Positions 1-59,945 of a DNA stretch of 64,000 bases are shown one piece after another. Below the pieces are notes generated by a model. That model worked only from the letters and a program-made list of their open reading frames with translations, had not been told where the DNA came from and did not search any database. The stretch comes from Thermoleophilia bacterium (GTDB taxonomy: Bacteria; Actinomycetota; Thermoleophilia; RBG-16-64-13): assembly GCA_040772905.1 (NCBI GenBank), contig JAXGXJ010000015.1, positions 465-64,464 of the forward strand. The letters run 5' to 3'. The translations under genes and the position numbers were made by a program. Numbering within the stretch: position 1 is the stretch's first letter; each line of letters starts with the position of its first letter.

Positions 1-1646
1 TCCTCTTCCAGCTTGGTGTTCACCGGCAGGATGATGTCGGCCAAGAGAGCGTCGTTCTCGAGCCAGGGATGCTGAGCCCACATGAACTCGATGTCGGGAT
101 GCTGCATGGCCCGCACGTAGTCGTTACCGGCGTTCCAGCAGGTGATCCAGGAAGGAGAGTCGGTCCACACAGCGTGGATCTTGGAGCAATCCGGGTTGGG
201 ATAGATGCGCTTGACGAACTGGTCTTCGCGCGGCGCTGTCTCCGATTCGCAGCCGTACCATTCGCACTCGCCCTCGAGGATGGCCTTCGGGATGAAGGTC
301 TTCGGCAACGAAGGATAGTGGCTGTCCGACGGATGGCCGCCGGTGTACGCGGTGCGCAGGTTGGGCACGCGCAGCGGCTTGGGCTGAGCGTACTGATCGG
401 GGAAGTCGAACAGACCCCACTCGATCATCTTCACCTGGTTCTGGCCGGGTTTGCCCAGGCCCTGCATGGCCAGGCAGATGCCCTGCAGACGGGCAGGCTC
501 GGTGGCGTACGGGCCGCGGATGCCGGGGCCGCCGTTGCCGATGACCACGCTGGTGCGTTTGGACGCCCATTCTTTGGCCAGAGCTTTGATGACCCGGGCC
601 GGAACGCCGCAGATGGGAGCCGCCCACTCGGGGGTCTTCGGCTCGCCGTCTTCCTCGCCCATGACGTAGGCCTCGAAGGCGTCCACACCCACGGCGTGGC
701 TCTCGAGGTATTCCTTATCATAGGTGCCGTCCTTGAACCACTGATAGCAGATGGCCAGGTAGAGGGCGGCGTCGGTGTTCGGCAGCACAGGGATCCACCT
801 GTCGGCGTGGACCGCGGCGGCGTAGTTGAGGTCGGGGCACACGTAGATCTGTTTGATGCCCAGTTCGGTGTACCAGTAGCTGAGGCGGCTGGGCAGCTGG
901 CCCTGCCAACCCCACGGGGTGGTCTCCTGGTCGCAGCCCCAGAAGAGCAGCAGTTCGCAATTCTCGGCCACATCATAGAGCAGGTTGCTCTGCTTGCCCT
1001 GACCCACCGGCTCACAACCCCAGAAGTGCTTGCTACCCCACCACCAGCCTTCCCAGCTGTCCGGCTGCCTGATCTGGAGGGTGTAACCGCCCCAGAGCGG
1101 GAGCAGCTTACGGCCGGCGCCGTGGCAGGCCTGCACCACTTTGTTCTCGCCGTGCTGGTCGCACTGGTAGAGAAGCGCGGTGGGACCGTAGGTCTCTTTG
1201 ATGCGGTTCATCTCGCCGGCGATGATGTCCAGCGCCTCGTCCCAGGAGATGCGCACGTACTTGCTCTTGCCGCGGTTCTGGACGTTGCGGCCGCCGGGGC
1301 CGGTTGAACCGGGAGCGCCGCTGGGATCGAAGTCCACCCTCTTCATGGGGTAGCGCACACGGGCTGGAGAGTACACGCGCTTCTTGTACGCGATGGAATA
1401 GGGCGGGATGAGCGTCTTCATGCTCGGCTCGAAGGTCGAGCCCCGCACTTCCATCTTCCAGGGGTTCATGTCCTTCTCGGGATCATACTTCCAGTCGTAG
1501 TGCATCGGACGGATGCGGATGATCTTGCCATCCTTGACGTCCACCATGGAAGCGTTCGACCCGTTCTCGGGCACGCCACAGAAGCTGATATCGCGTATCA
1601 GCGTCTTTTCGCCCGACTTCCCGTTCGGCGCGCGATCTTCCGCCAT
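1..1646 (-). CDS. Molybdopterin oxidoreductase alpha subunit, pyrogallol-phloroglucinol transhydroxylase (AthL)-like, partial (runs off the window start)
   Basis: Hand translation of the minus strand from ATG at 1646 (RBS AAAGGAGG 4 nt upstream) gives MAEDRAPNGKSGEKTLIRDISFCGVPENGSNASMVDVKDGKIIRIRPMHYDWKYD...PMKRVDFDPSGAPG...NVQNRGKSKYVRISWDEALDIIAGEMNRIKETYGPTALLYQCDQHGENK. The open frame was verified to position about 1080 by hand translation and assumed continuous to position 1. It is colinear with the N-termini of the complete alpha ORFs at 4317..6920 and 55397..58027. It is missing from the ORF track only because it has no stop inside the window. The plus ORF 69..1307 is its antisense shadow. 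Confidence 0.8.
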   Translation of the reverse strand, partial: MAEDRAPNGKSGEKTLIRDISFCGVPENGSNASMVDVKDGKIIRIRPMHYDWKYDPEKDMNPWKMEVRGSTFEPSMKTLIPPYSIAYKKRVYSPARVRYPMKRVDFDPSGAPGSTGPGGRNVQNRGKSKYVRISWDEALDIIAGEMNRIKETYGPTALLYQCDQHGENKVVQACHGAGRKLLPLWGGYTLQIRQPDSWEGWWWGSKHFWGCEPVGQGKQSNLLYDVAENCELLLFWGCDQETTPWGWQGQLPSRLSYWYTELGIKQIYVCPDLNYAAAVHADRWIPVLPNTDAALYLAICYQWFKDGTYDKEYLESHAVGVDAFEAYVMGEEDGEPKTPEWAAPICGVPARVIKALAKEWASKRTSVVIGNGGPGIRGPYATEPARLQGICLAMQGLGKPGQNQVKMIEWGLFDFPDQYAQPKPLRVPNLRTAYTGGHPSDSHYPSLPKTFIPKAILEGECEWYGCESETAPREDQFVKRIYPNPDCSKIHAVWTDSPSWITCWNAGNDYVRAMQHPDIEFMWAQHPWLENDALLADIILPVNTKLEE

Positions 1647-1685
1647 ACTGCCTCCTTTGCTTCTCTGCCTTCCTATTCCACTGGT

Positions 1686-1701
1686 CGGAATAGCTATTCC
1701 G
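1686..1701. promoter_or_regulatory. Perfect 16-bp palindrome CGGAATAGCTATTCCG, a candidate IclR-type operator in the promoter of the alpha-prime gene
   Basis: Read directly from the sequence. It lies 40 bp upstream of the alpha-prime start (1646) and 35 bp downstream of the iclR stop (1736). It is flanked by additional TATTCC / GGAATA half-sites (1674-1679) and a second AT-rich inverted repeat CCGTAATTGTACGG (1700-1713). Confidence 0.45.
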
Positions 1702-1735
1702 TAATTGTACGGATATCTATTGTGTCACCTTCGTA

Positions 1736-2584
1736 TCATGCAGTCAACAGAGTCGGGGGCATCGATCCGCTGGACCGGCTGAGGTTCCGGCTCAACGCAT
1801 CCGCGCTGCTCTTGACCGCTGCCGCCAGCCTCTGCCTGTCCTCGCCGCCGAACCGTTCCGCCGGTGCAACCACCGTGATGACGGCCCGCAGGTCACCGCT
1901 GGGCCCGAAGACGGGAGCCGAGACCGCACACACGCCCAGGTCCTGCTCCTCGAGGTCGTAGGCCAGCCCCTCCTCCGCCACCCGGCGCAACTCCCGACGC
2001 ACGACCTCAGGATCGGTCTTGGTATGCGGGGTGAGCTTCACCTGGCGCAGACGGCCCAGCAGTCTCTCCTGCTCCACCTCGGGCCGATAGGCAGCCAAGA
2101 CCTTCATGGCCGAGTTCGCCAGGTTGCGAAGCACCCGCCCCAGAGGCAGATTGGGCTTGAAGGGGTGCGACGTCGCCACCTGGTCCACCACCACTGCGCC
2201 GCCCTCCCCCTCCACGGCCAACTCCACCGTCTCCCCCGTGATGTGCGCCAGTTCCTCCACAAAAGCATGCGAAGAGCGGGCGAAACCCACGTTGGAGAGA
2301 CTCAGATAGGCCACCGGGATCATGGCGCCGCCCAGATGGTACAGCTCGGTCTGAGGATCGAAGGTGACAAAGCCCTTGGCTTCCAGAGTCCGGAGCATGC
2401 GATAGGCGGTGGTCTTGCATATGCCGGTGTGCTGCGCGATGTCGCGCAGACTCCATTCGGGATGCTCCACGTCGAACAGCGCCAGGATAGACAGGCCGCG
2501 TGCCAATGCCTGCACGTACAGGTCGCCGGCTTCCTCTCCGCTCCCGGTGGTGACGCTCCTCGGCCGTCCTCCGACCCTAACCAT
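1736..2584 (-). CDS. IclR-family transcriptional regulator
   Basis: 282-aa ORF. It has an N-terminal HTH (LSILALFDVEHPEWSLRDIAQHTGICKTTAYRMLRTLEAKGFV) and a C-terminal IclR effector-binding domain pattern. Confidence 0.85.
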   Translation of the reverse strand: MVRVGGRPRSVTTGSGEEAGDLYVQALARGLSILALFDVEHPEWSLRDIAQHTGICKTTAYRMLRTLEAKGFVTFDPQTELYHLGGAMIPVAYLSLSNVGFARSSHAFVEELAHITGETVELAVEGEGGAVVVDQVATSHPFKPNLPLGRVLRNLANSAMKVLAAYRPEVEQERLLGRLRQVKLTPHTKTDPEVVRRELRRVAEEGLAYDLEEQDLGVCAVSAPVFGPSGDLRAVITVVAPAERFGGEDRQRLAAAVKSSADALSRNLSRSSGSMPPTLLTA

Positions 2585-2719
2585 GCGGTCCTCCGCTGTC
2601 GCGGGATATAGCAGACGGCGTGGCGGCGCTGCCGCTCACCATCTCCGAAATACCCAGACTCGGTCCACCTCTATCAGTGTAGCCTGCTTCCGCTGCCTGT
2701 CCAGCCGGACGGACGTGCG

Positions 2720-3280
2720 TCACCGCCCGGTGGCCAGCGTCTTGCCCGCTTCGTATGCCCGGATCTTCAGGCCGGCATCGCGGTCGGCGGTCTCCGGATC
2801 GTTGGCGTTGGTGCAGACGATGTTCTCCACCAACTCGAAGCCGAACCAGGGGAACATAGCCGCGGTGTACTCGAAGTACGATTCGAACAGGCGCGGGTCT
2901 TCCATGCCCTGTGTGTACACGGTGACCAGCTTCTTGTTGCCGAAACGAGGCTTCCACTCATTATCGGTGAGAGGGAAGAAGCGGTCGTACATGTTCTTCA
3001 CCGGGCCTGTCATCTGCATCATGTAGATGGGTGAGCCCACCACGACTGCGTCGGCCTTCATCACTTCTCTGACGGCCTCGCTCAACTCGTCATTGATGGA
3101 GCAGTCGTCTTTCATGCGGCAGGAGAAGCAGCTCTGGCAGGCCATGAACTTCATCTTGAACAGGGTGTGGAAATGGACCTGGGCTCCGTTATCCCGGGCC
3201 CCCTTGGTGATGAGGTTGAGCAGGGTGGCGGTGTTCCCGTCCATGCGCGGGCTGCCATTGAAGATGACGATCTCTTTCAC
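2720..3280 (-). CDS. NAD(P)H-dependent FMN reductase / flavodoxin-fold protein
   Basis: The ORF is 2720..3325. The likely true start is GTG at 3280, preceded by GGAAGGAAAGG at a 6-nt spacing. The protein begins VKEIVIFNGSPRMDGNTATLL, typical of SsuE/flavodoxin-like FMN reductases. Confidence 0.65.
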   Translation of the reverse strand: MKEIVIFNGSPRMDGNTATLLNLITKGARDNGAQVHFHTLFKMKFMACQSCFSCRMKDDCSINDELSEAVREVMKADAVVVGSPIYMMQMTGPVKNMYDRFFPLTDNEWKPRFGNKKLVTVYTQGMEDPRLFESYFEYTAAMFPWFGFELVENIVCTNANDPETADRDAGLKIRAYEAGKTLATGR

Positions 3281-3309
3281 GAGCGGCCTTTCCTTCCCGG
3301 GCCGACGAC

Positions 3310-3356
3310 CGGATACGAAGAACAACAGGGAGGGCTTTGGCCCGCAAAGCCCTCCC
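3310..3356 (-). terminator. Intrinsic terminator after the beta2 gene (12-bp GC stem 3328..3356 plus U-rich tail on the minus-strand RNA)
   Basis: GGAGGGCTTTG-gcccg-CAAAGCCCTCC is a perfect inverted repeat. On the minus-strand transcript it is followed by CUGUUGUUCUUCG. Confidence 0.6.
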
Positions 3357-3385
3357 CGAGGAGGATCTGATCGAGTCTTGAAGCC

Positions 3386-4267
3386 TCAGAGCTCGATGAA
3401 GCCCAAGTTCAGAGACTCATCTTTGAGAGTGACGGTAGTGGAGTACTTGCGGCCTCCGGCATCGACTTCCACCCTGTATTCGCCGTTGTTCAAACCGTCG
3501 AACTTGAACTCACCGAAGAAGTTCGTCGCCCGGGTGGCAAGGACCGAGGTGTCTTGACAGTTGGCTACGCCCGCGCCCGAGAGGGTGCAGGCGATGCCGC
3601 CCTCCTTGGAATGCAGGGTGACCGTCGCTCCCTCGAAGCAGTCACCGTCCACGAGCACGCCCGCGGTGATGAAGTTCTTGGTGAACTTGTACAGGTTCTT
3701 GTAGAGCGTACGCGGCTTGGTACCCAGCTCCGCCCGGTAGGCCTCCAGGCCCTCGGCCTGAATCATCTTCTCCATCTCTTCAGGCTCGACGAAGTAGGTG
3801 GCCATGGCATCGGTGGGGCAGGAATGCGTGCAGCGGGTGGTATGCGGCGTCCAGGTGGGGTCGTCGATGAGGTGCGCGCAGAAGATGCACTTCTGAGGCA
3901 ACTGGGCCTCTTCGTTCCAGAAGATCGCACCATAGGGGCAGCTGTCGACCAGGTCTTTGCGGCCCTTGGCCTTCTCCAGGTCGATCATGACGATACCGTC
4001 GGGGCGGTAGTAGATGGCGCCATCTGACGCTTCCACACACGGCGCCTCGGCGCAGTGCTGACAGGGCATGGGCAGATAGGCCACGTCGTTGCGGGAGTAC
4101 GTGCCGCGCTCGCGCCGCTTGATGTCCACCCAACGGTGGCCATGGCGAGGCTGGGCAGCGGTGTACCCTGGCCAATCGTTGTCGACGAACTCGTCTTTGT
4201 CGGCCATAAAGCAGTTGTTGCAGTCGTGACACTTGGCAACATCGATGACCTTGTACCATTGCTTCAT
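3386..4267 (-). CDS. Transhydroxylase-like beta subunit (BthL-like): 3x[4Fe-4S] ferredoxin domain plus C-terminal beta-sandwich domain
   Basis: True start is MKQWYKVIDVAKCHDCNNC (ATG at 4267; RBS AAGGAG 9 nt upstream), not the ORF start at 4354. It has Cys clusters CHDCNNC, CQHCAEAPC and CIFCAHL, and a C-terminal domain (EYRVEVDAGGRKYSTTVTLKDES) resembling the transthyretin/CarbopepD-like fold of BthL. Confidence 0.85.
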   Translation of the reverse strand: MKQWYKVIDVAKCHDCNNCFMADKDEFVDNDWPGYTAAQPRHGHRWVDIKRRERGTYSRNDVAYLPMPCQHCAEAPCVEASDGAIYYRPDGIVMIDLEKAKGRKDLVDSCPYGAIFWNEEAQLPQKCIFCAHLIDDPTWTPHTTRCTHSCPTDAMATYFVEPEEMEKMIQAEGLEAYRAELGTKPRTLYKNLYKFTKNFITAGVLVDGDCFEGATVTLHSKEGGIACTLSGAGVANCQDTSVLATRATNFFGEFKFDGLNNGEYRVEVDAGGRKYSTTVTLKDESLNLGFIEL

Positions 4268-4316
4268 TTCTGCTGGCTCCTTATCCATCATGCGGGACCG
4301 ATCGAAAGGTCCGCGA

Positions 4317-6920
4317 TCAGTCCATCTCGTAGATGCCGCCGTCCCACTTCTCAACTTCGATCTGCATGGTGTTCGGCGCCATGCCGCAGGCGTACTTGGA
4401 CATGTAGCGATCGGGTGACAGGATGTTCACGCATCCACCGCGATCAGCGGACTTGCCCGGAGTGCCCAGCGGGTTGTACTCAGCGCACGACTCGTAGGTG
4501 TGCACCGTGCCGGGCTGCGTCCTCTGCCCCACCTGGGCGCACAGGATGACGGAGCCGCGGTCGTTGTAGGCGCGCACAAGGTCGCCGTCCTTGATGCCAC
4601 GGGCATCGGCGTCGACCTTGTTGATCCTGATGATCCAGTAGTAGTGCCCATCCTCTTTGAGGACCCGATGGTCTTTGATGTCGTTCATGAAGCTGTCCTT
4701 GCCGTCACCCATGGTGTGGAAGGAGAAGCGGGGATGCGGAGCCAGCATGCCCAAGGGGTACTTCTTGGCCAACTCACAACGCGGACCCTCCCAGGCGGGC
4801 ACGTAGGTATGCATGGCGGGACGGTACTCGTCGACGAAGCCCTGCTCTTCGAAGTTCTTGAGGCTGGTGGAGATGAACTCGACCTTGCCCGTGCTGGTCT
4901 GCAGACCTTTGCGCCCCACCGAGTTGTTGAGACGCGGACCCCAGTCCGGGGTGTCCTTCTCGCGATCCTCTGCGAACCAGCGCAGAGCCGGGGTCTTCTT
5001 CCGGTTTGGGTTGTCCGGCACCACGAAGTACCCCTTCTCGAGGAAGTCCTCCCACGTCATATACTTGGGCATGTCGGTGGCGTGGTAGTACTGCTTGACC
5101 CAGTCGAGGTCGGTCTTGCCTTCGCTGAACATAGGGCCGATACCCAGCTTGTCGGCGATCATGCAGTATATGTCGTAATCCGACTTCGACTCGCCCACCG
5201 GCTCGATGCACTTCTTCTGCAGCGTGATCACGCGGTGGTTGGTCTGCTGGTAGTTGTCGGGGATGTAGCCCGAGCAGTTGGCGAACTCGGAGATGTCCCA
5301 GCGCTCGAAGTTGGTGCAGGCCGGCAGGATGATGTCGGCGAAGGGCACCTCACCCTCGAACCAGATCGACTGGCTGACGACGAACTCCAGGCTCGGATGC
5401 GTGTACATGCGGGCATAGCGGTTGGTGGCCGTCATGGTGCCGATCCACGGGCCGCCGTATTTCCACAGCATCTTGATCTTGGGATAGCCCGGAGCCGGAT
5501 ACTGATACTGATGGAACTGGGCCTGGATGTCGCTGCCGCAGAAGCCCTTGCCCGACCACTCGAACTTGCCGTCCATGATGCATTCCGGCACCTTCAGGCG
5601 CGGGATGTGCTGACCTGCGGCCGTGTTGATGTTGGAGGGCGACGGGAAAGAGGTCTTTCCGTCGAACATCCTCCAGGCGAACTTGAAGCCGGCGGCAGAG
5701 TTCTCGCAATCGCCGGAGATACCACCCTCGGCGTAGCCGGGGAAGTAGAAGTCGTAGTCGGTGGGCACACCCTGCGTGGTGGAGTAGATGTTCGAGCCCG
5801 GCTTGCCCATGCCCTGCATGGTTGCAAGCGCGATCATGCCGCGGGCCCACTCGACGCCGTGGGAGGCGCGGCAGGCTCCGCCCCAGCCGCCCAGACCACC
5901 GGCGGCAAGCATGGTCTTCTTCTTGCCCCACTCGCGGGCCAGGGCGCGGATCTCACACGCCGGAACGCCCGACTCGGCCTCGGCCCATTCACACGTCTTG
6001 GGCACACCGTCGGTCTTGCCGAGCACGTACTCAGACCACTCTTCGAAGCCGTGGGCGTGAGTAGCGACGTACTCTTTGTCGTACGTGCCCTCGGTGAGCC
6101 AGGTGTAGGCGATGGCGAAGGAAAGGGCGTGGTCGGTGCCGATCTTGGGCGAAAGCCACTTGTCGCCGATGAGGCTGGCCGTGTGGTTGTAGAACGGGTC
6201 GATGAAGACCATCTTGATGCCCAGGTCCTTCATCCAGTAACGCCGGACGGTGGACTCATGGGCCGAGTAGATGCCGGTGTTCACTTCGGGGTCGGACGAC
6301 CAGAACACGATCATCTCGGTGTTCTGCAGCGTGTCCTCGAGCAGGTCGTACTGCTCCGGGTTGCCGAGGCGCCAACTGAAGCCCCACATATGCATGCCGC
6401 CCCAGTGCCAGCCTTCCCAGCTGTCGGGGTTGTGGTCGGCGTAGGTGATGCCCACCATGTTCATGAAGCGGAAGTAGGTGCTGTGGCGGTAACCGACGTT
6501 GCCCCACATGTGGTGGGAACTGGGGCTGGTGAGGATGGCCGCGGGGCCGGCTTCGCGCTTGACGCGGTTGACCTCTGCCACCACGATGTCGGTGGCTTCA
6601 TCCCAGGAGATGGGCTCGTAGCCGGAGATGCCGCGGTTCTGGATGTTACGCTCGCCGTTGGGATCGAAGTCCACGCGCTTCATGGGCGTCATGATGCGCT
6701 TGTCGGAGTAGATCATGGACTTGAAGCCCGCGGTATAGACGGAATACGTGGTCTTGCGCGGCGGGGTGAAGGTCCTACCCCTCGCCTCGATCTTCCACGA
6801 GGGCGCGTCGACGGCGTCGTCGAAGTCCATCGGCGTGATCCTAATGATCTTCCCGTCCTTCACATAGACGAAGACAGGACCACCGGTGGATGAGTTGGTC
6901 AAGCGCACTACTTCGCCCAT
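4317..6920 (-). CDS. Molybdopterin (bis-MGD) oxidoreductase alpha subunit, pyrogallol-phloroglucinol transhydroxylase (AthL)-like
   Basis: 867 aa with no signal or TAT motif. It carries the MKRVDFDPNGERNIQNRG and DSWEGWHWGGMHMWG blocks shared with the two other alpha paralogues in the window. RBS GAGAGG is 6 nt upstream. Confidence 0.9.
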   Translation of the reverse strand: MGEVVRLTNSSTGGPVFVYVKDGKIIRITPMDFDDAVDAPSWKIEARGRTFTPPRKTTYSVYTAGFKSMIYSDKRIMTPMKRVDFDPNGERNIQNRGISGYEPISWDEATDIVVAEVNRVKREAGPAAILTSPSSHHMWGNVGYRHSTYFRFMNMVGITYADHNPDSWEGWHWGGMHMWGFSWRLGNPEQYDLLEDTLQNTEMIVFWSSDPEVNTGIYSAHESTVRRYWMKDLGIKMVFIDPFYNHTASLIGDKWLSPKIGTDHALSFAIAYTWLTEGTYDKEYVATHAHGFEEWSEYVLGKTDGVPKTCEWAEAESGVPACEIRALAREWGKKKTMLAAGGLGGWGGACRASHGVEWARGMIALATMQGMGKPGSNIYSTTQGVPTDYDFYFPGYAEGGISGDCENSAAGFKFAWRMFDGKTSFPSPSNINTAAGQHIPRLKVPECIMDGKFEWSGKGFCGSDIQAQFHQYQYPAPGYPKIKMLWKYGGPWIGTMTATNRYARMYTHPSLEFVVSQSIWFEGEVPFADIILPACTNFERWDISEFANCSGYIPDNYQQTNHRVITLQKKCIEPVGESKSDYDIYCMIADKLGIGPMFSEGKTDLDWVKQYYHATDMPKYMTWEDFLEKGYFVVPDNPNRKKTPALRWFAEDREKDTPDWGPRLNNSVGRKGLQTSTGKVEFISTSLKNFEEQGFVDEYRPAMHTYVPAWEGPRCELAKKYPLGMLAPHPRFSFHTMGDGKDSFMNDIKDHRVLKEDGHYYWIIRINKVDADARGIKDGDLVRAYNDRGSVILCAQVGQRTQPGTVHTYESCAEYNPLGTPGKSADRGGCVNILSPDRYMSKYACGMAPNTMQIEVEKWDGGIYEMD

Positions 6921-7132
6921 TCCTTACCTCTCTTTGCTCTTGTGCACATCCGGGGCCGCCCGTGCGTCGCTCCGCGGCACCGCGGTTAGAGCCGGCTTTC
7001 TGACCCTTCCATCTATCAATATACAAGCAGTCTCGGCGGGTTGCCCGCTCTCAGACCATGCTTGGCATCCACACTACGGGACTAAATACCGTCTGATGGG
7101 ATGGCTCGGGCGAGGCCCGAACTTGGGACCGA

Positions 7133-7972
7133 TCAGGCCTTCTCCAGCATGATGGTGCCCAGGTTGACGCTCTCGCCGGGGGTGACCGTGGCGCTGTAGG
7201 GCGCGTAGCCGTCGGCCTGCACCGTGACGGTGTATTCCCCTGCCGGCTGCAGCCTGTCTACCACGAACTCGCCGTAGTTGTTTGCCACACCCTCGCCCAC
7301 GACTTGGCCCACCGAGACGATGGTCACCTTGGCGCCCTCGGCGCACTCGTCGGTGTCCTTGAACACAGCGCTGCCCCCGATGAAGACCTTCTCCCACTTG
7401 TACAGGTTCTTGTACTTCACCCGCGGGTCGGTACCCAACTCGGCGCGGTAGTCTTCGAGGCCCTCCTCGTCTACGATCCTGGCCCATTCGTCATCGTCGG
7501 CCAATACCAGACGGATGGCGCCCGTGGGACACACCTGCGAGCAACGGGTCTCGGTCCAGCCTTGGTCGAGGAGATGGGCGCAGCCGTTGCACTTCTGCGC
7601 CACTTGGGCCTCTTCGTTCCAGTAGATGGCGCCGTAGGGGCAGGTGTCCACGATCTCGGGATGGCCTTTGGCCTTCACCGGGTCGATAATCACCAGACCA
7701 TCCGGGCGTCGGTAGACACTGCCGTCGGCGGACGCCTCGACGCAGGGGGCGTCGGCGCAGTGCTGGCAGGGCATGGGCAGATAGGCCACCTGCACGATGG
7801 GGTACTGGCCCCGCTCCTTGCGGTGGATGTTCATCCACCTGTGCCCCGACCACGGCTGTGCCACCGAGTAGGGCAGGAAGTCGTTGCCGACGAACTCGTC
7901 CTTGTCTGCCAGAAAGCAATCGTTGCAGTCGTGACAGCGGGCGACGTCGATGATCATGTTCCATTTCTTCAT
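7133..7972 (-). CDS. Transhydroxylase-like beta subunit (BthL-like), orphan copy located upstream of the alpha gene
   Basis: 279 aa, MKKWNMIIDVARCHDCNDC..., with the same Cys-cluster and C-terminal beta-sandwich architecture as 3386..4267 and 58024..58851. RBS GGGAGGG is upstream. Confidence 0.85.
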   Translation of the reverse strand: MKKWNMIIDVARCHDCNDCFLADKDEFVGNDFLPYSVAQPWSGHRWMNIHRKERGQYPIVQVAYLPMPCQHCADAPCVEASADGSVYRRPDGLVIIDPVKAKGHPEIVDTCPYGAIYWNEEAQVAQKCNGCAHLLDQGWTETRCSQVCPTGAIRLVLADDDEWARIVDEEGLEDYRAELGTDPRVKYKNLYKWEKVFIGGSAVFKDTDECAEGAKVTIVSVGQVVGEGVANNYGEFVVDRLQPAGEYTVTVQADGYAPYSATVTPGESVNLGTIMLEKA

Positions 7973-8019
7973 CTAGGGTGTCCCTCCCATGTCTCCTCCT
8001 GGATCAGGCTGTACCGTGC

Positions 8020-8058
8020 CGCGAAGAGCCCCCTCGGCCACCGAGGAGGCTCTTCGCG
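8020..8058 (-). terminator. GC-rich hairpin (11-bp stem CGCGAAGAGCC/GGCTCTTCGCG with a nested inner stem) between hbd-like and beta1; a probable terminator lacking a U-tract
   Basis: Inverted repeat read from the sequence, with coordinates accurate to about 2 nt. It is followed by a second small hairpin GTCAGaccacCTGAC. Confidence 0.45.
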
Positions 8059-8099
8059 AAGGTCTGAGTGGAAGTCAGACCACCTGACTGTCCGGCCGC

Positions 8100-9050
8100 C
8101 TACTTCTTGGCCTCCTGCGCCGCCACGCGGGCAAGGTAGTCGAGCAGGCGGTCACGAGTGGCCTGCATGCTCTCGGGAGTCCAGTCGTAGAACCCCTTCT
8201 GCGTCTTGAAGCCGAGTTCGTTGTTGTCGATCATCTGCTTCAGCAGCGGCGAGGGCTCGTGCGAATCCTCCAGGTACTTGAGCACGTAGCTGTGGATGGA
8301 GTACGTCAGGGGCGTACCCACCATGTCGGAGTTCTCCAGCGGGGCGAGGATGGGCAGCCTGATGCCGGGGCCGAACTTGAGGGCCTCGTCCACGGTAGCC
8401 GGATCGGCGATGCCGCGCTCGACGATGGAGATGGCCTCGCGCCACAGCGCGTGCTGCAGCCTGTTGGCCACGAAACCGGGTACGTCCTTCTTCACATCCA
8501 CGGGGTGCTTGCCCACGGCGCGCATGAGGTCCATGGTGAGGGTCACCACCCAGTCGGCGATGTCCTCGGTGCGCACGACCTCTACCAACGGGATGAGATA
8601 GGGCGGGTTCCACCAGTGCGTTCCGATGATGCGGTGGCGCCCCTTGGAGGTGCTGGCGATCTCGGTGATGCTCATGACCGAGGTGTTGGTGGCGAGCACG
8701 GTGTCGGGATCGGACTTCTCGTCCATCATGGCGAAGAGCTCTTGTTTGAGCGCCATGTCCTCCACCGCGCACTCGAGCACGAACTGAGCCCCGTCCAGGG
8801 CCTCGTCGTAGCTCTGCGTGGTGGTGATGCGGGCGATGGCGGGCTCGATGTCCTCCACCTTGCCCACGCCACGTTCGGCCAGGAAGCCCAGGTCGTGGCG
8901 GATGGTGGCCATGGCCTTGGCCAGGGTCTCCTGCTTGCGGCTCATGAGGTGCACGTCGTAGCCGGCCACAGCGAACACCTGGGCCGTGCCGTGCCCCATC
9001 ATGCCGCCGCCGATGATGGCGACCTTCTTGACGTCAGCGAGTGTTTTCAC
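8100..9050 (-). CDS. 3-hydroxyacyl-CoA / 3-hydroxybutyryl-CoA dehydrogenase (Hbd family)
   Basis: Rossmann motif VAIIGGGMMGHG plus the 3HCDH C-terminal domain. The ORF track starts at a TTG (9062). A GTG at 9050 overlaps the stop of the upstream SDR (GTGA coupling) and is more plausible. Confidence 0.8.
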   Translation of the reverse strand: MKTLADVKKVAIIGGGMMGHGTAQVFAVAGYDVHLMSRKQETLAKAMATIRHDLGFLAERGVGKVEDIEPAIARITTTQSYDEALDGAQFVLECAVEDMALKQELFAMMDEKSDPDTVLATNTSVMSITEIASTSKGRHRIIGTHWWNPPYLIPLVEVVRTEDIADWVVTLTMDLMRAVGKHPVDVKKDVPGFVANRLQHALWREAISIVERGIADPATVDEALKFGPGIRLPILAPLENSDMVGTPLTYSIHSYVLKYLEDSHEPSPLLKQMIDNNELGFKTQKGFYDWTPESMQATRDRLLDYLARVAAQEAKK

Positions 9051-9844
9051 GATGCGAGCCAACCTCCGTCTACATTAAGGATTACTCCGGTAAGGAACTC
9101 AGAGGCGTCGGACGAGAGGAAGACCGCTGCTCCGACGAAATCATCGGGCACGCCGGCCCGACCCCAGGGGATACGGGTCATGTGGAAGTCGTACAGAGCC
9201 TTGTCCTTCAGTACCTGCTCGGTCAACGGCGTCCAGAAGATGGCCGGCGCTATGGAGTTCACATTGATCTTGTACTTGGCCCATTCCGTGGCCAACTGCT
9301 TGGTGAGGGCATGCACCGCGCCCTTGGAGGTGGTGTAGCCCGAGTAGCCGCCGGGATTGCCCTGGAACCCACGCACCGAGCCGATGGTGATGATCTTGCC
9401 TCCACCCTGACCGATCATCTGTATGCCGGCCTTCTGGCAGCAGAGGAACGTGCCGCGCACGTTGACGTCCATCATGCGCTGCCATTCGTCCACCGGCATC
9501 TGTTCGGTGGGGATGCGGTTGGAGATGCCGGCCGCCGTGACCAGGATGTCCAGGCGTCCGAACTCCTCGACCACGCGGTCGACCGTCGCCTGCACGCCGG
9601 CCTCGTCCACCACGTCGCAGGTGAGGGCGAGGGCCTTGCGGCCGAGCGCCTGCAACTCCTCGGTGACCGGCTGCATGGCCGTGGCCGAGAAATCGGCCAC
9701 GGCCACGTCGGCACCGTGTATCGCCAAACCACGGGCGATGGTGCTGCCCAAAGCACCGCCACCGCCGCTGATGAGGGCGACCTTACCGCTCAGGTCGAAC
9801 TGCTGCGCGACCTGCTCGGCCGGTATACGACCCGGTAGATCCAT
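9047..9844 (-). CDS. Short-chain dehydrogenase/reductase (SDR), copy 1
   Basis: 265 aa with GKVALISGGGGALG and catalytic YTTSK. It belongs to the KduD/gluconate-5-DH-like classical SDR group. Confidence 0.85.
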   Translation of the reverse strand: MDLPGRIPAEQVAQQFDLSGKVALISGGGGALGSTIARGLAIHGADVAVADFSATAMQPVTEELQALGRKALALTCDVVDEAGVQATVDRVVEEFGRLDILVTAAGISNRIPTEQMPVDEWQRMMDVNVRGTFLCCQKAGIQMIGQGGGKIITIGSVRGFQGNPGGYSGYTTSKGAVHALTKQLATEWAKYKINVNSIAPAIFWTPLTEQVLKDKALYDFHMTRIPWGRAGVPDDFVGAAVFLSSDASEFLTGVILNVDGGWLAS

Positions 9845-9847
9845 CGA

Positions 9848-10645
9848 CTAGCCGGCTACGCTGCCACCGTCGACGGGCACGATGGCGCCGGTGACGAAGT
9901 CAGAAGCCGCGCTGGAGAGGTAGAGGACGGTACCGATCATGTCATCGGGCACGGCCGCACGGCCCCACGGGATGCGCGACAGGAAGATCTGCTTGAGTTT
10001 CTCGTCCTCGAGCACCTGCTGCGTGAGCGGGGTCCAGAAGATGCAGGGCGCGATGCAGTTGACGTTGATGTGGTACTTGGCCCACTCGGTCGACAGCTGC
10101 TTGGTGAGCAGATGGACGGCACCCTTGGTCGTGCCATAGGCGGCGTAGCCACCGGGATGGCCCAGCTCGCCACGGACGGAACCGACGGTGACGATCTTGC
10201 CGAAGCCCTGCTTGATCATCTGCTTGCCGACCAGCTTGCAGGTGATGAACGTGCCGGTGACGTTGGCCGTCAAGACCTTCTCGAAGGCATCCAGGGGGAA
10301 GTCCTCGGCCGGGTGACGGTCGGCGATGCCGGCCGCGGTAATCAGGACATCGATCTTGCCGAACTCGGCCAAGACCTTGTCGACCATCTCCTGCTGGCTG
10401 GCTTCGCTGCAGACGTCGCAGGCGATAGGCAGGGCCTTCGCGCCCAGTTCGGTGCACTCTTTCGCCACAGCCTCGAGGTTCTCGAGCTTACGGCTGGTGA
10501 CGACGATGTTGGCACCGTTTGCCGCGAAGCCCTTGGCCAGGGCATGGCCCAAGAAGCCGGCGCCGCCTGTGATGAGGACGACTTTGCCCTTGACGTCGAA
10601 GAGGTTCTTGATCTGGTCGATGGTCAGTTCTCCGGGTGCGCCCAT
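9848..10645 (-). CDS. Short-chain dehydrogenase/reductase (SDR), copy 2 (tandem paralogue)
   Basis: 265 aa with GKVVLITGGAGFLG and YGTTK. It is roughly half identical to copy 1 by eye. Its stop is 3 bp from the start of copy 1. Confidence 0.85.
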   Translation of the reverse strand: MGAPGELTIDQIKNLFDVKGKVVLITGGAGFLGHALAKGFAANGANIVVTSRKLENLEAVAKECTELGAKALPIACDVCSEASQQEMVDKVLAEFGKIDVLITAAGIADRHPAEDFPLDAFEKVLTANVTGTFITCKLVGKQMIKQGFGKIVTVGSVRGELGHPGGYAAYGTTKGAVHLLTKQLSTEWAKYHINVNCIAPCIFWTPLTQQVLEDEKLKQIFLSRIPWGRAAVPDDMIGTVLYLSSAASDFVTGAIVPVDGGSVAG

Positions 10646-10782
10646 GTCTCTTCTTCTCTCCTTCTGGTCTGGATACAGTGCCGGGCGACGGGCCGGACGG
10701 CCGCGGCGCCCGTTCCCGGTCGGGGGGACCGGGATGAGGCGGCCGGGCAGAGCCCGGCCGCCGGTGCTTCCTCAGGTGATCC

Positions 10783-11607
10783 TTACTCCCTGGGGCGAAG
10801 ACCCAGGATCTGCCGGGCCTCGTCCACATTGGCGATGGGCCGGTTGAACTCGTTGGCCAGACGCACAACGCGCTCCACGAACTCGTAGTTGTGCTTGGCC
10901 AGCACACCCTTGCTCAGGAAGACGTTGTCCTCCATGCCCACGCGCACGTGGCCGCCCATATGGATGGCCATACTGGTGATGGCCATGGCGGTCGGGCCGC
11001 AGCCGAACGCCGACCAGGTAGAGCCGGCCGGCATGTCGTCGACGAGGTTGATGAGGTTCCGAGGCGTGCCCTCGGCGCCGCCGTGCACGTTCAGGCAACA
11101 CTGGAAGTGCAGCGGCTCCTGCAGATAACCCTCTTTGAGGAGACGCTTGGCGTTCCACACCATGCCGATGTCGAACACTTCGATCTCGGGCTTGATGCCG
11201 TTCTCGATGTAGGCCTTGCCCAGTTTCCGCAGGAAGCTGGGCGAGTTCTCGAACACGCCCTCATAGAAGTTCATCGTACCCGCGTCGAAAGTACCCATGT
11301 CGGGCTTCAACTCGACGTGAGGAGTGATGCGCTGCTCATCGGTCCAGCCCAGGCCGCCCGAGCTGGTCATGTTGATGATGATGGGGCATTTCTCTTTGAT
11401 GAGGCGGACGGTCTCGCGGAACCTCTCCAGGTCCATGGTGGCCTTGTGGTCCTCGGTGCGCACGTGCACGTGAGCGACCGAAGCGCCGGCCTGGTACGCC
11501 ATGTAGACCTCTTCCGCGATCTCCTCGGGCTGAGTGGGGAGATACGGTGTGTTCTCCTTGGTCGTCATAGCCCCGGTCGTCGCCACGGTTATGATGAGTT
11601 TCTCCAT
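10783..11607 (-). CDS. BKACE-family beta-keto acid cleavage enzyme (3-keto-5-aminohexanoate cleavage enzyme Kce / DUF849 homologue)
   Basis: True start is MEKLIITVATTGAMTTKENTPYLP (ATG 11607, GGAGG 8 nt upstream). The ORF track N-extension to 11706 is spurious. The protein is a full-length TIM-barrel Kce-like sequence. Confidence 0.85.
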   Translation of the reverse strand: MEKLIITVATTGAMTTKENTPYLPTQPEEIAEEVYMAYQAGASVAHVHVRTEDHKATMDLERFRETVRLIKEKCPIIINMTSSGGLGWTDEQRITPHVELKPDMGTFDAGTMNFYEGVFENSPSFLRKLGKAYIENGIKPEIEVFDIGMVWNAKRLLKEGYLQEPLHFQCCLNVHGGAEGTPRNLINLVDDMPAGSTWSAFGCGPTAMAITSMAIHMGGHVRVGMEDNVFLSKGVLAKHNYEFVERVVRLANEFNRPIANVDEARQILGLRPRE

Positions 11608-11916
11608 ACATCGACCTCCATGAGATTGTGCTCGACTCACTCGAAGAAGACGGCCCGAAGGCCGTCCTCGAGAGTACAGATATGACGGTCCGGCGGGCAC
11701 CATCACCCGACCTAGCAGTCATTCATACCATTTTTATACTCTACACCATCCCCAGGTTCGGCCCAAGGTATGCGAGAGGTCTCATCGACTCGGACAGCCA
11801 CAAACGGCCACGACGCCTGCGGCTGCAGCCGCCCACCCGTGGCCGCGGCAGCAGTCCTCGCACGCAACCCCGGCTCACATCCACTATAATGGCTTCCGCT
11901 CGCCGTGGGCGGGCGG

Positions 11917-12002
11917 GCCGAAGTGGCGGAACTGGCAGACGCGCTGGACTCAAACTCCAGTGAGGCTCACACCTCGTGCGGGTTCGATCCCCGCCTTCGG
12001 CA
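11917..12002 (+). tRNA. tRNA-Leu (anticodon CAA), type II with long variable arm
   Basis: The acceptor stem GCCGAAG/CTTCGGC pairs perfectly. The anticodon stem-loop is CTGGA-CTCAAAC-TCCAG. There is a 17-nt variable arm, a T-arm GCGGG-TTCGATC-CCCGC, and discriminator A. CCA is not encoded. TATAAT lies at 11885..11890 upstream. Confidence 0.85.
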
Positions 12003-12082
12003 TGCACACAGCGGTCTCGTCGCTCTTCGATGTTGCTCATCGGGCCTTTGGGGGCGCAAGCTTTGCCGAACCCGTAGATTTC

Positions 12083-12102
12083 GTGTAGCGGCACTGCTAC
12101 AC
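12083..12102. promoter_or_regulatory. Inverted repeat GTGTAGC-n6-GCTACAC immediately upstream of the XRE regulator start; a possible auto-operator
   Basis: Read from the sequence. It ends 9 bp before ATG 12111. Confidence 0.3.
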
Positions 12103-12110
12103 TCTAGACT

Positions 12111-12611
12111 ATGAGTGCAGCTTCGGAAGAGCGCGAACGACGGTACGTAGAGCTGGTGGGCGAGAAGCTTCGCCGCCTGCGGCAGGACCGCGGGCTGAGC
12201 CTGCAAGAGGTCTGCGAGCGGTCAGGCGGCTCGTTCGTGGTCTCCACCCTCAGCGCCTACGAGCGCGGAAAGCGCAGCCTCAGCCTGGAGCGACTCTACG
12301 AACTGGCAGCCATCTATGGCCAGTCCCCCATGTCGATCCTCGACGTGGAGGACGACCCTGAGTTCCAGCGCACGCTCAGCCGCAACGGGCCCCTGCGCAT
12401 CCGGCTGGAGAGCCTCGACAAGCTGACCCCCGACGAGCGCCGGCCTCTCGAGACCTACCTGGGTTTCCTGCGTGAGTTGCGCAACGACCCGGCCCGCGAC
12501 ATGCTCACCATCCGCAAGGACGACCTCACCTATCTCTCCGGCCTCTACGGCGTGAGGCCGCAGGCCCTCAAGGAGTATCTGGAGCGCGAGGGCGTCCTCA
12601 TCGCCGACTAG
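12111..12611 (+). CDS. XRE-family helix-turn-helix transcriptional regulator
   Basis: 166 aa. It has an HTH_XRE-like segment (LRRLRQDRGLSLQEVCERSGGSFVVSTLSAYERGKRSLSLERLYELAAIY). It converges on and overlaps the 3' end of trpA by 14 bp. Confidence 0.7.
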   Translation: MSAASEERERRYVELVGEKLRRLRQDRGLSLQEVCERSGGSFVVSTLSAYERGKRSLSLERLYELAAIYGQSPMSILDVEDDPEFQRTLSRNGPLRIRLESLDKLTPDERRPLETYLGFLRELRNDPARDMLTIRKDDLTYLSGLYGVRPQALKEYLEREGVLIAD

Positions 12612-13484
12612 TCTTTCCGGCCCGTGCGGTCGTCACGGCGGCCCGCATCGCTTCGACCGTCCGTCTCACCTCGTCAAGCCCCTGCTCGAAGCTATCGGCC
12701 CGTGCGATGACGTCCACCAGGGCACTGCCCACTATGACCCCGTCGGCGAACGCGGCCACTTCGGCGGCCTGCACTGGGCTGGACACTCCGAACCCCACGG
12801 CCAGAGGCAGAGCGGTGTAGGCACGCAGCCTATCGATGAAAGCCGGCAGGCCGGCGTCCAAGGCCGAGCGCGCTCCGGTGACGCCGGTGGTGGACACGCA
12901 GTAGATGAACCCCGAGGCCTCCCGCCCGATGCGTTCCAGACGCGTGTCCGGGCTGGTAGGCGCCGCCAGGAGTACCACGTCGACGCCGCGGGACCGTGCG
13001 ACCTGCTGCATTGACTCCGCCTCCTCGGCGGGCAGGTCGGGCACCACCACGCCCAGGACTCCCCGTTCCCGGCATTCGCCGAAGAAACGCTCCGGATCGT
13101 AGGCCAAGATGGTGTTGAGGTAGGTGAGCAGCACCACCCCGGCTCCCTCGGCAGCGATATCACCGGCAAGCGCCAGGACGTCCTTGGGCCGGACGCCTCG
13201 GGTGAGCGCCGTCTGCGAAGCCGCCTGGATGACGGGACCGTCGGCCAATGGGTCCGAGAAGGGGACGCCTATCTCGATGAGTCCGGCACCGCCGGCTCGG
13301 TACGCGCGCAGGATCTCCAAGCACGAGGCCGGATCGGGATACCCGCCCACCGCGTAGGGCATGAGCAACGGTCCGCCCGCCGCACGGAACACAGCTTCCA
13401 GTGCGCCGGAACCACCAGGGACACCGTGCGCGCCGGCCGTGGGGGCACCGTCTCTGTCACCCATCTTGTCGTATGTCTCAAGGG

Positions 13485-58027: not shown

Positions 58028-58851
58028 AGGCGTTCTTCATCGATCTTTCCATCTGCAACGGCTGCTACTGCTGCCAGGTGGCCTGCAAGGACGAGCACTG
58101 CGGCCAGGACTGGCTCCCCTATGCCAAGGCGCAGCCCGAGATCGGCCAGTTCTGGCTGGGTATCGACGAGCGCGTGCGCGGGCAAGTGCCCAAGGTGAAG
58201 ATCACCTATCTGCCCAAGCTCTGCCAGCACTGCGACGATGCGCCCTGCATGGCCGCGTGCCCGGTGGAAGGCGCCATCTACAAGCGCGAAGACGGCATGG
58301 TGATCATCGACCCGCAGAAGTGCACGGGCTGCAAGCTCTGCGTGGATGTGTGCCCGACCGGGTCCATCTTCTTCAACGACAGCCTGATGCTGGCGCAGAA
58401 GTGCACCGCCTGCTCGCACCTGCGCGACAACGACCCCGAGACTTGGGCCGACACCACGCGCTGCGCCGACGCCTGCCCCACCGGAGCCCTGCGCTTCGGT
58501 GACGAGGCGGACTTCGCCGACTTCATCAAGGAAGCGGAATACCTGGTGCCCGAGATGGCCGGCAAGACGCGGGTCTACTACAAGAACCTGCCCAAGAAGT
58601 TCGTGGCCGGCACCCTGTACGACCCGAAACAGATGGAGATCATCGAGGGCGCGACCGTGACCCTCACCGACGACCAGTCGGGCGAGACCTTCACGGCCAC
58701 CACCGACAACTACGGCGACTTCTGGTTCAACGGCCTCAAGGATGACCGCACCTTCACGCTGGTGTTCGCGAAGGACGGCAAGAGCAAGACCATCGAGGGC
58801 GTCTCCACGGCGATCGACCTCAACGTGGGCGACATCGCCATGGAGTTGTAG
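58024..58851 (+). CDS. Transhydroxylase-like beta subunit (BthL-like), third paralogue
   Basis: The GTG start overlaps the alpha3 stop (GTGA). VKAFFIDLSICNGCYCCQVAC..., CQHCDDAPC, CTGCKLCVDVC, CTACSHL, and the C-terminal beta-sandwich domain are present. Confidence 0.85.
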   Translation: MKAFFIDLSICNGCYCCQVACKDEHCGQDWLPYAKAQPEIGQFWLGIDERVRGQVPKVKITYLPKLCQHCDDAPCMAACPVEGAIYKREDGMVIIDPQKCTGCKLCVDVCPTGSIFFNDSLMLAQKCTACSHLRDNDPETWADTTRCADACPTGALRFGDEADFADFIKEAEYLVPEMAGKTRVYYKNLPKKFVAGTLYDPKQMEIIEGATVTLTDDQSGETFTATTDNYGDFWFNGLKDDRTFTLVFAKDGKSKTIEGVSTAIDLNVGDIAMEL

Positions 58852-58947: not shown

Positions 58948-59945
58948 CTACGCGCCGCGCACCTGGGCCCGCACCTGCACCATCTGGGCCGTGATGCTGA
59001 TGGCGATCTCGCCGGGAGTCTCGCCGCCGATGGGAAGTCCGATGGGCGCATAGACCCGCGCGATATCGGCATCGGAGAAACCTTGCGCACGCAACGCCCC
59101 GAGGATGGTGGCCACCTTCTTCCTGCTTCCGATCATGCCTATATAGCAGGCGTCGGTACGCAGCGCCTGGGCCAGCACAGCCTGGTCGAACACATGGCCG
59201 CGGGTCACGATCACCAGGTAGCTGTCTGCGTCGACGCCCAGGCGGTCCACCCCGTGTTCCAGACTGTCGAGCACCACCACTTCGTCCGCTGTGGGAAAGC
59301 GCTCACGGTTGGCGAAATCGGCCCGGTCATCGATGATCACCGTGCGGAAGCCGGCGATATCCAAAGCCGGGATGAGCTTCGCGCCGCAGTGCCCGGCTCC
59401 GAACACGTACGCCGTACCGTCCATGCCGATTGGACGCACGTGGATGAGTGACCTGTCCTTGCAGTCTTGAGGCGGATCCGGCACCGCGTCCCTGGACTCG
59501 GTGACGATCCGCGCGACGTCCCATCCCTTCTCTTGTGACCCCGTGACCGTGGTAACCAACCAACCTTTGCCGCCTTCGCCGAGCAGGCGCGCCAGCGTGT
59601 ACCAAAGGTCGCGAGCAGCGGCATCCGGGCGCGCTCACAGGTTCTATCAGCACTGCGCCCTGGCCGCCGCAGATCATGCCCAGACCGGCCGAGTCCTCCG
59701 GGGTGAGCACGAAGTCCACCACACGCAGTCGCACGCGTCTGGAACACGCTGAGCGCCTCTCGGATGGCATGGGCCTCAAGGGCGCCGCCTCCGATGGTAC
59801 CCACGATGCTGCCGTCACCCCGAACCAGCATGCTGGCCCCGCCATGACGAGGTGACGAGCCGCTGGTGTGGATGATGGTGGCCAGTGCGAAGTCCTCCCC
59901 CGCATCGAGGAATCCCAGCGCTGAGCGCACGATCTCCAGTTCCAT
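58948..59945 (-). pseudogene. xdhC: xdhC/coxI-family molybdenum-cofactor insertion chaperone gene, disrupted by two apparent frameshifts
   Basis: Frame A (59945 to about 59740) encodes MELEIVRSALGFLDAGEDFALATIIHTSGSSPRHGGASMLVRGDGSIVGTIGGGALEAHAIREALS (XdhC_CoxI N-domain). Frame B (about 59740-59640) encodes VVDFVLTPEDSAGLGMICGGQGAVLIEPVSAP. Frame C (59559..58948) encodes the XdhC_C Rossmann domain (AYVFGAGHCGAKLIPALDIAGFRTVIIDDRADF...YIGMIGSRKKV...ETPGEIAISI). Together they reconstruct one roughly 333-aa XdhC. Confidence 0.6.

Follow-up and report, generated by a model that had tools for sequence, protein, structure and literature searches.

A pyrogallol-phloroglucinol transhydroxylase locus of a soil actinobacterium with a maintained small-subunit gene that probably outlived its large-subunit partner

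The stretch of DNA analysed here (the window, 64 kb of a contig from a Thermoleophilia bacterium) carries on its minus strand three adjoining genes related to pyrogallol-phloroglucinol transhydroxylase, in the order beta1, alpha, beta2. The upstream gene, beta1 (7133-7972, 279 amino acids), encodes an orphan BthL-like small subunit with a Fer4_11 domain, of the four-cluster ferredoxin type, and a C-terminal CarboxypepD_reg domain (Pfam). After a spacer of 212 bp (6921-7132) comes alpha (4317-6920, 867 amino acids), the predicted transhydroxylase large subunit, a Mo-bisPGD enzyme orthologous to AthL. The start of beta2 (3386-4267, 293 amino acids), its cognate BthL-type small subunit with the same Pfam architecture as beta1, lies 49 nt past the alpha stop. 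An earlier note on this DNA had described the three minus-strand genes and the length of the spacer, and our list of open reading frames (ORFs), with their translations, gave exactly the same coordinates. Its remark that beta1 lacks an upstream alpha partner also holds, the nearest upstream gene being of the 3-hydroxyacyl-CoA-dehydrogenase type (HCDH) and ending at 8100, 127 bp away. So does the divergence that it saw between beta1 and beta2, which are 55% identical and differ beyond the final Cys motif as well as within the C-terminal domain. The beta-alpha-beta order is real and not an assembly artefact. The order HCDH-beta1-alpha is repeated in an independent assembly (L081, with a beta1 99% identical) and again in 24 short-read contigs from other samples (represented by L085-L088, beta1 84% identical).

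The comparisons show alpha and beta2 to be a clear predicted orthologue of the pyrogallol-phloroglucinol transhydroxylase found in Pelobacter acidigallici (AthL/BthL; PDB 4V4C, 4V4D and 4V4E). Alpha, beta2 and beta1 all align end to end with that enzyme, the two small subunits have its Cys motifs and C-terminal barrel, and alpha precedes beta2, an order common to all the related loci. Alpha has the AhtL-like_1st, Molybdopterin and Molydop_binding domains (Pfam), scoring 104.5 bits against a cut-off of 27 for the AhtL-like N-terminal domain PF21423, and its residues 1-866 align to 1-874, the full length, of 4v4c_A with 1711 bits. All six of H144, R153, D174, S175, Y404 and Y560 are present in alpha, with the numbering checked on the 4v4c_A alignment; these are the residues that we take to be the active-site set (His144, Arg153, Asp174, the Mo ligand Ser175, Tyr404 and Tyr560) described by Messerschmidt et al. 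2004. Beta2, which scores 371 bits against 4v4c_B, has the BthL Cys pattern for three [4Fe-4S] clusters and the C-terminal beta-barrel domain, and lies directly downstream of alpha. NCBIfam holds no transhydroxylase-specific model and gave no match at its curated cut-off. An exact-sequence look-up gave no record for beta1 or alpha of the window, although a contig with a 100% match came up by homology search. Where the window differs from the P. acidigallici system is in the extra upstream small-subunit gene without a cognate large subunit, and in the host, a high-G+C soil actinobacterium instead of a deltaproteobacterium. Resorcinol hydroxylase RhLS of Azoarcus/Aromatoleum anaerobium consists of a large and a small subunit and, unlike transhydroxylase, is a net oxidising hydroxylase of a nitrate reducer. 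The window alpha is far closer to AthL. In one grouping RhLS is counted with transhydroxylase as a Ser-coordinating, phenol-hydroxylating MopB enzyme (PMC10100899).

Some features of these subunits vary among relatives. The position of BthL Cys23 (CFMGC) is Asp (CFLAD or CFMAD) in beta1 (codon 7904-7906) and beta2 (codon 4199-4201) of the window and in all aligned beta1-clade proteins. Beta2 further differs from BthL by an insertion of about 16 amino acids with two Cys (GIACTLSGAGVANCQDTS, residues ~219-236) in the C-terminal barrel domain, which is seen in the window, L001 and L004 and is missing from the alignment rows of P. acidigallici BthL and of beta1. Across Actinomycetota, Acidobacteriota, Bacillota and Desulfobacterota (window against L015-L047 and 4V4C) alpha is 76-85% identical, whereas the accompanying beta2 is 52-67% identical across those phyla, a difference that suggests lateral spread together with very strong constraint on alpha.

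The small subunit encoded by beta1 aligns over residues 1-275 with 1-273 of 4v4c_B (271 bits). It has three [4Fe-4S]-type Cys motifs, with all 11 conserved Cys columns occupied, and the C-terminal CarboxypepD_reg beta-barrel. Gene maps were drawn for 80 related loci (numbered with the prefix L) and trees were built by neighbour-joining. Two types of large-small subunit pair were found. In the first, present in most mapped loci, an AthL-type alpha (76-94% identical to that of the window) is followed by a beta2-type subunit and then usually by an FMN reductase; these pairs span Actinomycetota, Acidobacteriota (including Holophaga foetida), Bacillota (including Eubacterium oxidoreducens) and Desulfobacterota, and a beta2-type subunit follows the AthL-type alpha in most of the 80. 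In the second type a beta1-type subunit comes after alpha2, a paralogue with 62-68% (about 66%) identity to alpha. Such alpha2-beta1 pairs, which are uncharacterised, were found in L082, L003, L004, L060-62 and L089-91, and belong to metagenome-assembled genomes (MAGs) of Thermoleophilia and Gaiellales and to Holophaga foetida. In the trees alpha2 forms its own clade, and the window beta1 falls inside the clade of alpha2 partners, not among the partners of AthL-type alpha; it is orthologous to, and 70-85% identical to, the small subunits of the alpha2-beta1 pairs. Within the alpha2 clade proper, beta1 still adjoins alpha2 in every complete locus sampled. Alpha2 is probably a second transhydroxylase-like enzyme, because it retains His144, Arg153, Asp174, Ser175, Tyr404 and Tyr560.

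Large subunits of alpha2 type that lack a small subunit also occur, at L070 (8001-10625), L074 (7983-10634) and L078 (8001-10580), in the context HCDH-SDR-alpha-BKACE and with Ala in place of Tyr560. The L074 alpha comes from the same MAG as an orphan beta1, that of L048. The L048 beta1 is 76% identical to alpha2 partners against 74% to the partner of an L074-like alpha in L080, a similarity that is no proof of pairing.

What distinguishes the window from the loci with alpha2-beta1 pairs is the deletion of the large-subunit gene. Locus L082 (beta1 84% identical), reached by homology search with beta1, reads BKACE-SDR-SDR-HCDH-alpha2 (862 amino acids)-beta1-alpha-beta2-FMN reductase-IclR-alphaC-betaC, which is the gene order of the window with alpha2 still in place. 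L004 and L089 have the same alpha2-beta1-alpha-beta2 core. In the window a putative remnant of the alpha2 3' end, about the last 12 codons, is found at 7969-8011 on the minus strand, directly before beta1, and matches the large-subunit 3' end of the paired loci. By blastn, 7973-8011 matches the 34 nt that end L082 alpha2, together with a 5-nt gap, within a 72-nt high-scoring pair of 80.6% identity (E 1e-14). In the alpha2 frame the remnant reads SLIQEETWEGHPR and then stops, as intact alpha2 genes do after CLIQVEKWEGETK (L060) or CLIQVERWEGAAK (L003), the intact genes having the pattern LIQVEKWEG.. before the stop. Its TGA overlaps the beta1 ATG, and this ATGA stop/start overlap is the same in the intact alpha2 genes. 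The remnant also holds the beta1 ribosome-binding site GGGAGGGA, and may have survived for that reason. The presence of alpha2 upstream of beta1 in relatives, with the remnant here, shows the beta-alpha-beta order to be the apparent outcome of a deletion and not a designed arrangement. The earlier note had proposed a synteny comparison, in which an alpha gene upstream of beta1 in relatives and a trace of it here were to count against its reading of the unusual order; just this was found, and it in fact supports the first of the alternatives that the note listed, that beta1 is the remnant of a lost alpha gene.

A perfect 19-bp hairpin (8019-8059, minus strand), terminator-like and without a U-tail, separates the alpha2 remnant from the HCDH gene and sits at the deletion junction or close to it. 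A repeat or mobile element at the junction was considered and rejected, the hairpin-bearing segment 8005-8099 occurring nowhere but in the window and L081. Between the window and L085 the two SDR genes and the HCDH gene (8100-10645) differ with dS of 0.12-0.24 and are 97-100% identical in amino acids, whereas dS is 0.56-0.62 for beta1 and the 5' part of alpha (within 4317-7972). This sharp jump in divergence would place a recombination breakpoint at the deletion site, with the HCDH gene on one side and beta1 on the other.

The loss of alpha2 has recurred in other lineages, with differing genes now upstream of beta1. In the window and L081 the upstream gene is HCDH and about 39 nt of alpha2 remain; it is also HCDH in L085-L088 and about 20 more contigs, with two 3' pieces of alpha2. 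A cyclase gene precedes beta1 in L001 and L002, where tblastn detected no alpha2 remnant and the 1.4-kb gap contains the cyclase gene, and in L076, where a C-terminal fragment of alpha2 is fused in frame. An FMN reductase gene precedes it in L011, with an alpha2 remnant of about 250 nt carrying a stop and a frameshift (tblastn E 8e-15), and in L048, with no remnant detected. In L092 the upstream gene encodes a periplasmic binding protein, the remnant is about 180 nt with three in-frame stops, and there is no alpha gene in the ~11-kb locus. Taken together, the 3' fragments of alpha2 that adjoin orphan beta1 in L011, L076, L085 and L092 bear stop codons or frameshifts. Intact relatives with the original layouts are L082, L004, L089, L003 and L091, and in the beta1 tree paired genes are nested among orphans. 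The differing upstream flanks and this nesting show what appear to be at least five independent losses of alpha2, with beta1 spared each time. We found no description of a recurrent, selectively maintained orphan small subunit of this kind in the literature searched.

Selection on the orphan genes was then judged from alignments and substitutions. All 11 conserved cluster Cys are intact in every orphan beta1. Within orphan lineages, the window and L081 are separated by 3 nonsynonymous against 9 synonymous changes (binomial P 1.6e-4), and L001 and L002 by 6 against 16 (P 6e-7). The ratio of nonsynonymous to synonymous rates, omega, is 0.16 between the window and L085 at dS 0.62, and its median over 15 genes is 0.165 for orphan-orphan, 0.183 for paired-paired and 0.173 for mixed comparisons. 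By domain, the medians for orphan and paired genes are 0.135 and 0.153 in the iron-sulfur part and 0.257 and 0.247 in the C-terminal part. A two-fold relaxation in orphans, hinted at by a few pairs, was gone in the 15-gene medians. The alpha2 fragments of L011 and L092 have decayed, and the adjoining beta1 genes are full-length ORFs with all Cys. Because the Cys are kept, nonsynonymous changes are deficient within orphan lineages and alpha2 fragments have decayed beside intact beta1 genes, the patterns show orphan beta1 as, by all appearances, a maintained gene under purifying selection and not a dead relic.

The spacers carry several candidate transcription signals. The AT-rich segment that the earlier note had pointed out between beta1 and alpha was located as the 19-mer CCATCTATCAATATACAAG at 7009-7027 (minus strand), which occurs once in the window and contains TGTATATT. 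Within it is a -10-like hexamer, TATATT (7018-7023), which comes after a TG and stands at -103 from the alpha ATG. A hexamer of the form TAnnnT with at least five A/T lies at -100 to -104 from alpha in the window, L001, L002, L011, L081, L082 and L085, and similar hexamers occur at other distances in L004, L076, L048, L071 and L016, independently of whether beta1 is upstream. This presence with or without beta1 fits a promoter belonging to alpha-beta2 itself, and the AT-rich segment is likely to be such an element, conserved in position. Just past the beta1 stop lies a G+C-rich hairpin of 8 bp (7104-7122, minus strand), with stronger hairpins at the same place in L004 and L076, and the intergenic region between the HCDH gene and beta1 has a predicted fold of -62.8 kcal/mol (z = -3.2). 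The separate transcription signals suggested earlier are thus borne out as predicted elements, namely the -10-like hexamer before alpha and the hairpins flanking beta1. A consensus scan revealed no sigma-70 consensus promoter upstream of beta1. An E-value scan of 1-13000 with Rfam found no riboswitch or other Rfam RNA in the spacers, the hits being a tRNA and a chance hairpin match.

Downstream of beta2, before the FMN-reductase gene, is a terminator-like G+C-rich hairpin of 14 bp with a T-rich tail (3326-3358, minus strand). A comparably strong hairpin follows beta2 in 17 of the 19 loci checked, from four phyla, conserved in structure and not in sequence and often accompanied by a T-run. The earlier note had a strong terminator (3310-3356) closing off the alpha-beta2 pair. 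A conserved hairpin is indeed there; its role as the end of the unit does not stand, since the FMN-reductase gene (2720-3280) follows, as in most relatives. Rather than ending the unit, the hairpin more likely governs how much enzyme mRNA there is relative to reductase mRNA. Taken as a whole, that earlier reading keeps the origin of beta1 as the remnant of a lost alpha gene and loses alpha-beta2 as the end of the unit.

We consider it quite probable that beta1 is the surviving small-subunit gene of a deleted alpha2-beta1 pair, still maintained and presumably still serving a large subunit. The ancestral layout would have been BKACE-SDR-SDR-HCDH-alpha2-beta1 followed by alpha-beta2-FMN reductase-IclR, with the alpha2-beta1 pair once flanked by the phloroglucinol-pathway genes on one side and by the true transhydroxylase genes on the other. 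A deletion would then have taken nearly all of alpha2 and left its last ~12 codons with the beta1 ribosome-binding site and the ATGA overlap, giving the beta-alpha-beta order. Alpha-beta2 would be transcribed from its own -10-like element in the 212-bp spacer, with the conserved hairpin preceding the FMN-reductase gene. Beta1 would still be made, as a spare or promiscuous iron-sulfur small subunit that docks on a large subunit of the transhydroxylase family; its partner might be the adjacent downstream alpha or a beta-less alpha2-type paralogue encoded elsewhere. Several points weigh against this account. Each alpha seen whole in the window, which covers 64 kb of the genome, already has its own beta. 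The remnant in the window is only ~39 nt long and overlaps the beta1 ribosome-binding site, and its conservation may be partly functional rather than historical. The neighbour-joining trees carry no support values, most of the pairwise dN/dS comparisons span deep divergences (dS ~1), so that what they record may for the most part predate the deletions, and those clearly later than the deletion rest on few substitutions. With no consensus promoter and a 19-bp hairpin separating it from the upstream operon, beta1 could also be poorly transcribed.

Other explanations were weighed against this deletion account. That alpha2 is missing through an assembly or binning error is hardly conceivable: the source contig is metagenome-derived, and several related long-read MAGs have frameshifted genes (L076, L089), but the identical junction in L081, the equivalent orphan layout in the 24 contigs from other samples, and a clean 127-bp intergenic region ending in a remnant in the correct frame all speak against it. 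Beta1 might instead be there by design, as a second choice of small subunit for the alpha downstream of it, with the order being kept so that alpha-beta1 and alpha-beta2 isoenzymes can form. Paralogous iron-sulfur subunits of DMSO-reductase-family enzymes are sometimes interchangeable, the whole iron-sulfur domain architecture is common to beta1 and beta2, and beta1 is intact and under selection and, in the window, L081, L085, L001, L002 and L076, directly precedes alpha. However, this adjacency is inherited from the layout in which alpha2-beta1 precedes alpha-beta2 (L082, L004, L089), and orphan beta1 is kept equally well where it does not precede alpha: in L011 and L048 it stands behind the FMN-reductase gene, and the ~11-kb L092 locus has no alpha gene. 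Most mapped alpha-beta2 loci lack beta1, hairpins and alpha's own -10-like element intervene between beta1 and alpha, and the two small subunits share just 55% identity. We therefore regard isoenzymes by design as unlikely.

Two further readings of beta1, as a stand-alone ferredoxin or as a dead relic, are less likely than its service to a large subunit. A three-cluster ferredoxin-like carrier, working for instance with the FMN reductase or the pathway dehydrogenases, would fit the retention of all the conserved cluster Cys, the purifying selection and the persistence of beta1 in L092, whose ~11-kb locus has no alpha gene. Yet a change of job should leave a shift in constraint between orphan and paired genes, and neither domain has one (0.135 against 0.153, and 0.257 against 0.247); moreover, relatives encode beta-less alpha2-type subunits, and that of L074 makes a partner in trans available in the MAG of the L048 orphan. 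We think such a carrier improbable. The idea that beta1 is a functionless relic of a recent deletion, too young to have decayed, draws on the still recognisable alpha2 trace, on the lack of a detected promoter and the strong hairpin upstream of beta1, and on the fact that deep pairwise omega values merge time before and after the deletion. It seems very improbable in view of the nonsynonymous deficit within orphan lineages, the full-length, Cys-complete beta1 genes that adjoin alpha2 remnants with stops or frameshifts in L011 and L092, and the keeping of beta1 through all of the losses, which number at least five.

Under the deletion account beta1 would have kept a use in the absence of its cognate large subunit, which suggests that the subunits are interchangeable or have a separate role. 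A tentative extension, possible though on balance doubtful, is that small subunits of the transhydroxylase family function independently of their own large subunit, for example as an iron-sulfur module common to several paralogous large subunits. Such a module would perhaps set the redox state of the large subunits together with the conserved FMN reductase. If this were true it would explain the repeated retention of beta1 after the loss of alpha2. Transhydroxylase catalyses no net redox reaction, and to our knowledge the reason for its three iron-sulfur clusters is unexplained; natural orphans would then offer a way to study the role of the clusters in such an enzyme. The AthL/BthL family and its pathway context are known, and what appears new, going by the literature searched, is a recurrent, maintained orphan small subunit, not a new system. 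The main value lies in correct annotation: this is a standard pyrogallol-phloroglucinol transhydroxylase operon, whose odd order appears to be a deletion scar and no novel kind of operon. Of modest wider interest is that, in what look like five or more independent cases, the small subunit has remained intact and under selection following the loss of its large subunit, and the orphan-bearing genomes supply concrete proteins to test.

The genes around the transhydroxylase fit a catabolic setting. Directly upstream of beta1 and on the same strand are the HCDH gene (8100-9062), a candidate for the TfD-like step and today the nearest upstream neighbour of beta1; a tandem pair of SDR genes (9047-9844 and 9848-10645), candidate phloroglucinol reductases (PGR-like); and a BKACE-family gene (10783-11706) like triacetate acetoacetate-lyase (TAL-like), the first gene of this upstream block. 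Anaerobic phloroglucinol degradation in Clostridium scatologenes uses PGR, DPGC, TfD and TAL, of the SDR, cyclase, 3HCDH-type and BKACE families, respectively (PMC10470551). Because the BKACE, SDR and HCDH genes upstream match the PGR, TfD and TAL families of that work, the locus is, as judged from its gene content, a cluster of the pyrogallol-to-phloroglucinol-to-acetoacetate type for anaerobic polyphenol degradation in a soil Thermoleophilia-like actinobacterium. The genomes that come nearest are MAGs from soil under the labels Thermoleophilia, Gaiellales or Actinomycetes, and their alpha is 88-94% identical. The window has SDR, HCDH-like and BKACE genes together as in the C. scatologenes cluster, and differs from it in lacking a DPGC gene and in having two SDR genes instead of one. 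No DPGC cyclase-family gene was found in the 64-kb window by tblastn with the L001 cyclase (best E 0.6), or in the gene maps of L011, L081, L082 and L085. In 10 related loci (L001-L004, L048, L060-62, L071 and L076) this gene is 87-98% conserved and lies between the HCDH and transhydroxylase genes (5612-6565 in L001); the window, L011, L081, L082 and L085 have two tandem SDR genes instead. For these cyclase-less loci, the enzyme that opens the ring may be encoded at another place, or the step may take another form.

Downstream, the third gene of the transhydroxylase unit encodes an NADPH-dependent FMN reductase or flavodoxin-like protein (2720-3280, minus strand, with a probable GTG start at 3280). 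It follows the alpha-beta pair in most mapped loci (L001-L066 in general) of Actinomycetota, Acidobacteriota, Bacillota and Desulfobacterota, usually with a strong hairpin between. The FMN reductase may be a conserved redox-activation partner of the transhydroxylase, and no mention of one beside transhydroxylase was found in the literature searched. An IclR-family regulator gene comes next (1736-2584, minus strand), its position matched in L001, L002, L004, L016, L071 and L082. At the outer edge of the catabolic cluster a tRNA gene (11917-12002, plus strand, Rfam 56 bits) lies between the BKACE gene and that of a BldD-like regulator.

Two further molybdoenzyme large subunits, from the same broad family as alpha, are encoded elsewhere in the window. 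AlphaB (55397-58027, plus strand) has its own small subunit, beta3 (58000-58851, plus strand), which retains Cys at the BthL Cys23 position, and alphaC (1-1646, minus strand) is cut by the start of the window; the plus-strand ORF at 69-1307 is its shadow. AlphaB and alphaC share 37-40% identity with alpha. His144, Asp174 and Ser175 are conserved in both, but they lack Arg153, Tyr404 and Tyr560, and so probably act on other substrates. Adjoining alphaB and beta3 are two overlapping ORFs of 203 amino acids (58948-59948, minus strand) that carry the two halves, XdhC_CoxI and XdhC_C, of a chaperone for molybdenum-cofactor insertion; a frameshift within a single gene, or a wrongly chosen start, may explain the pair.

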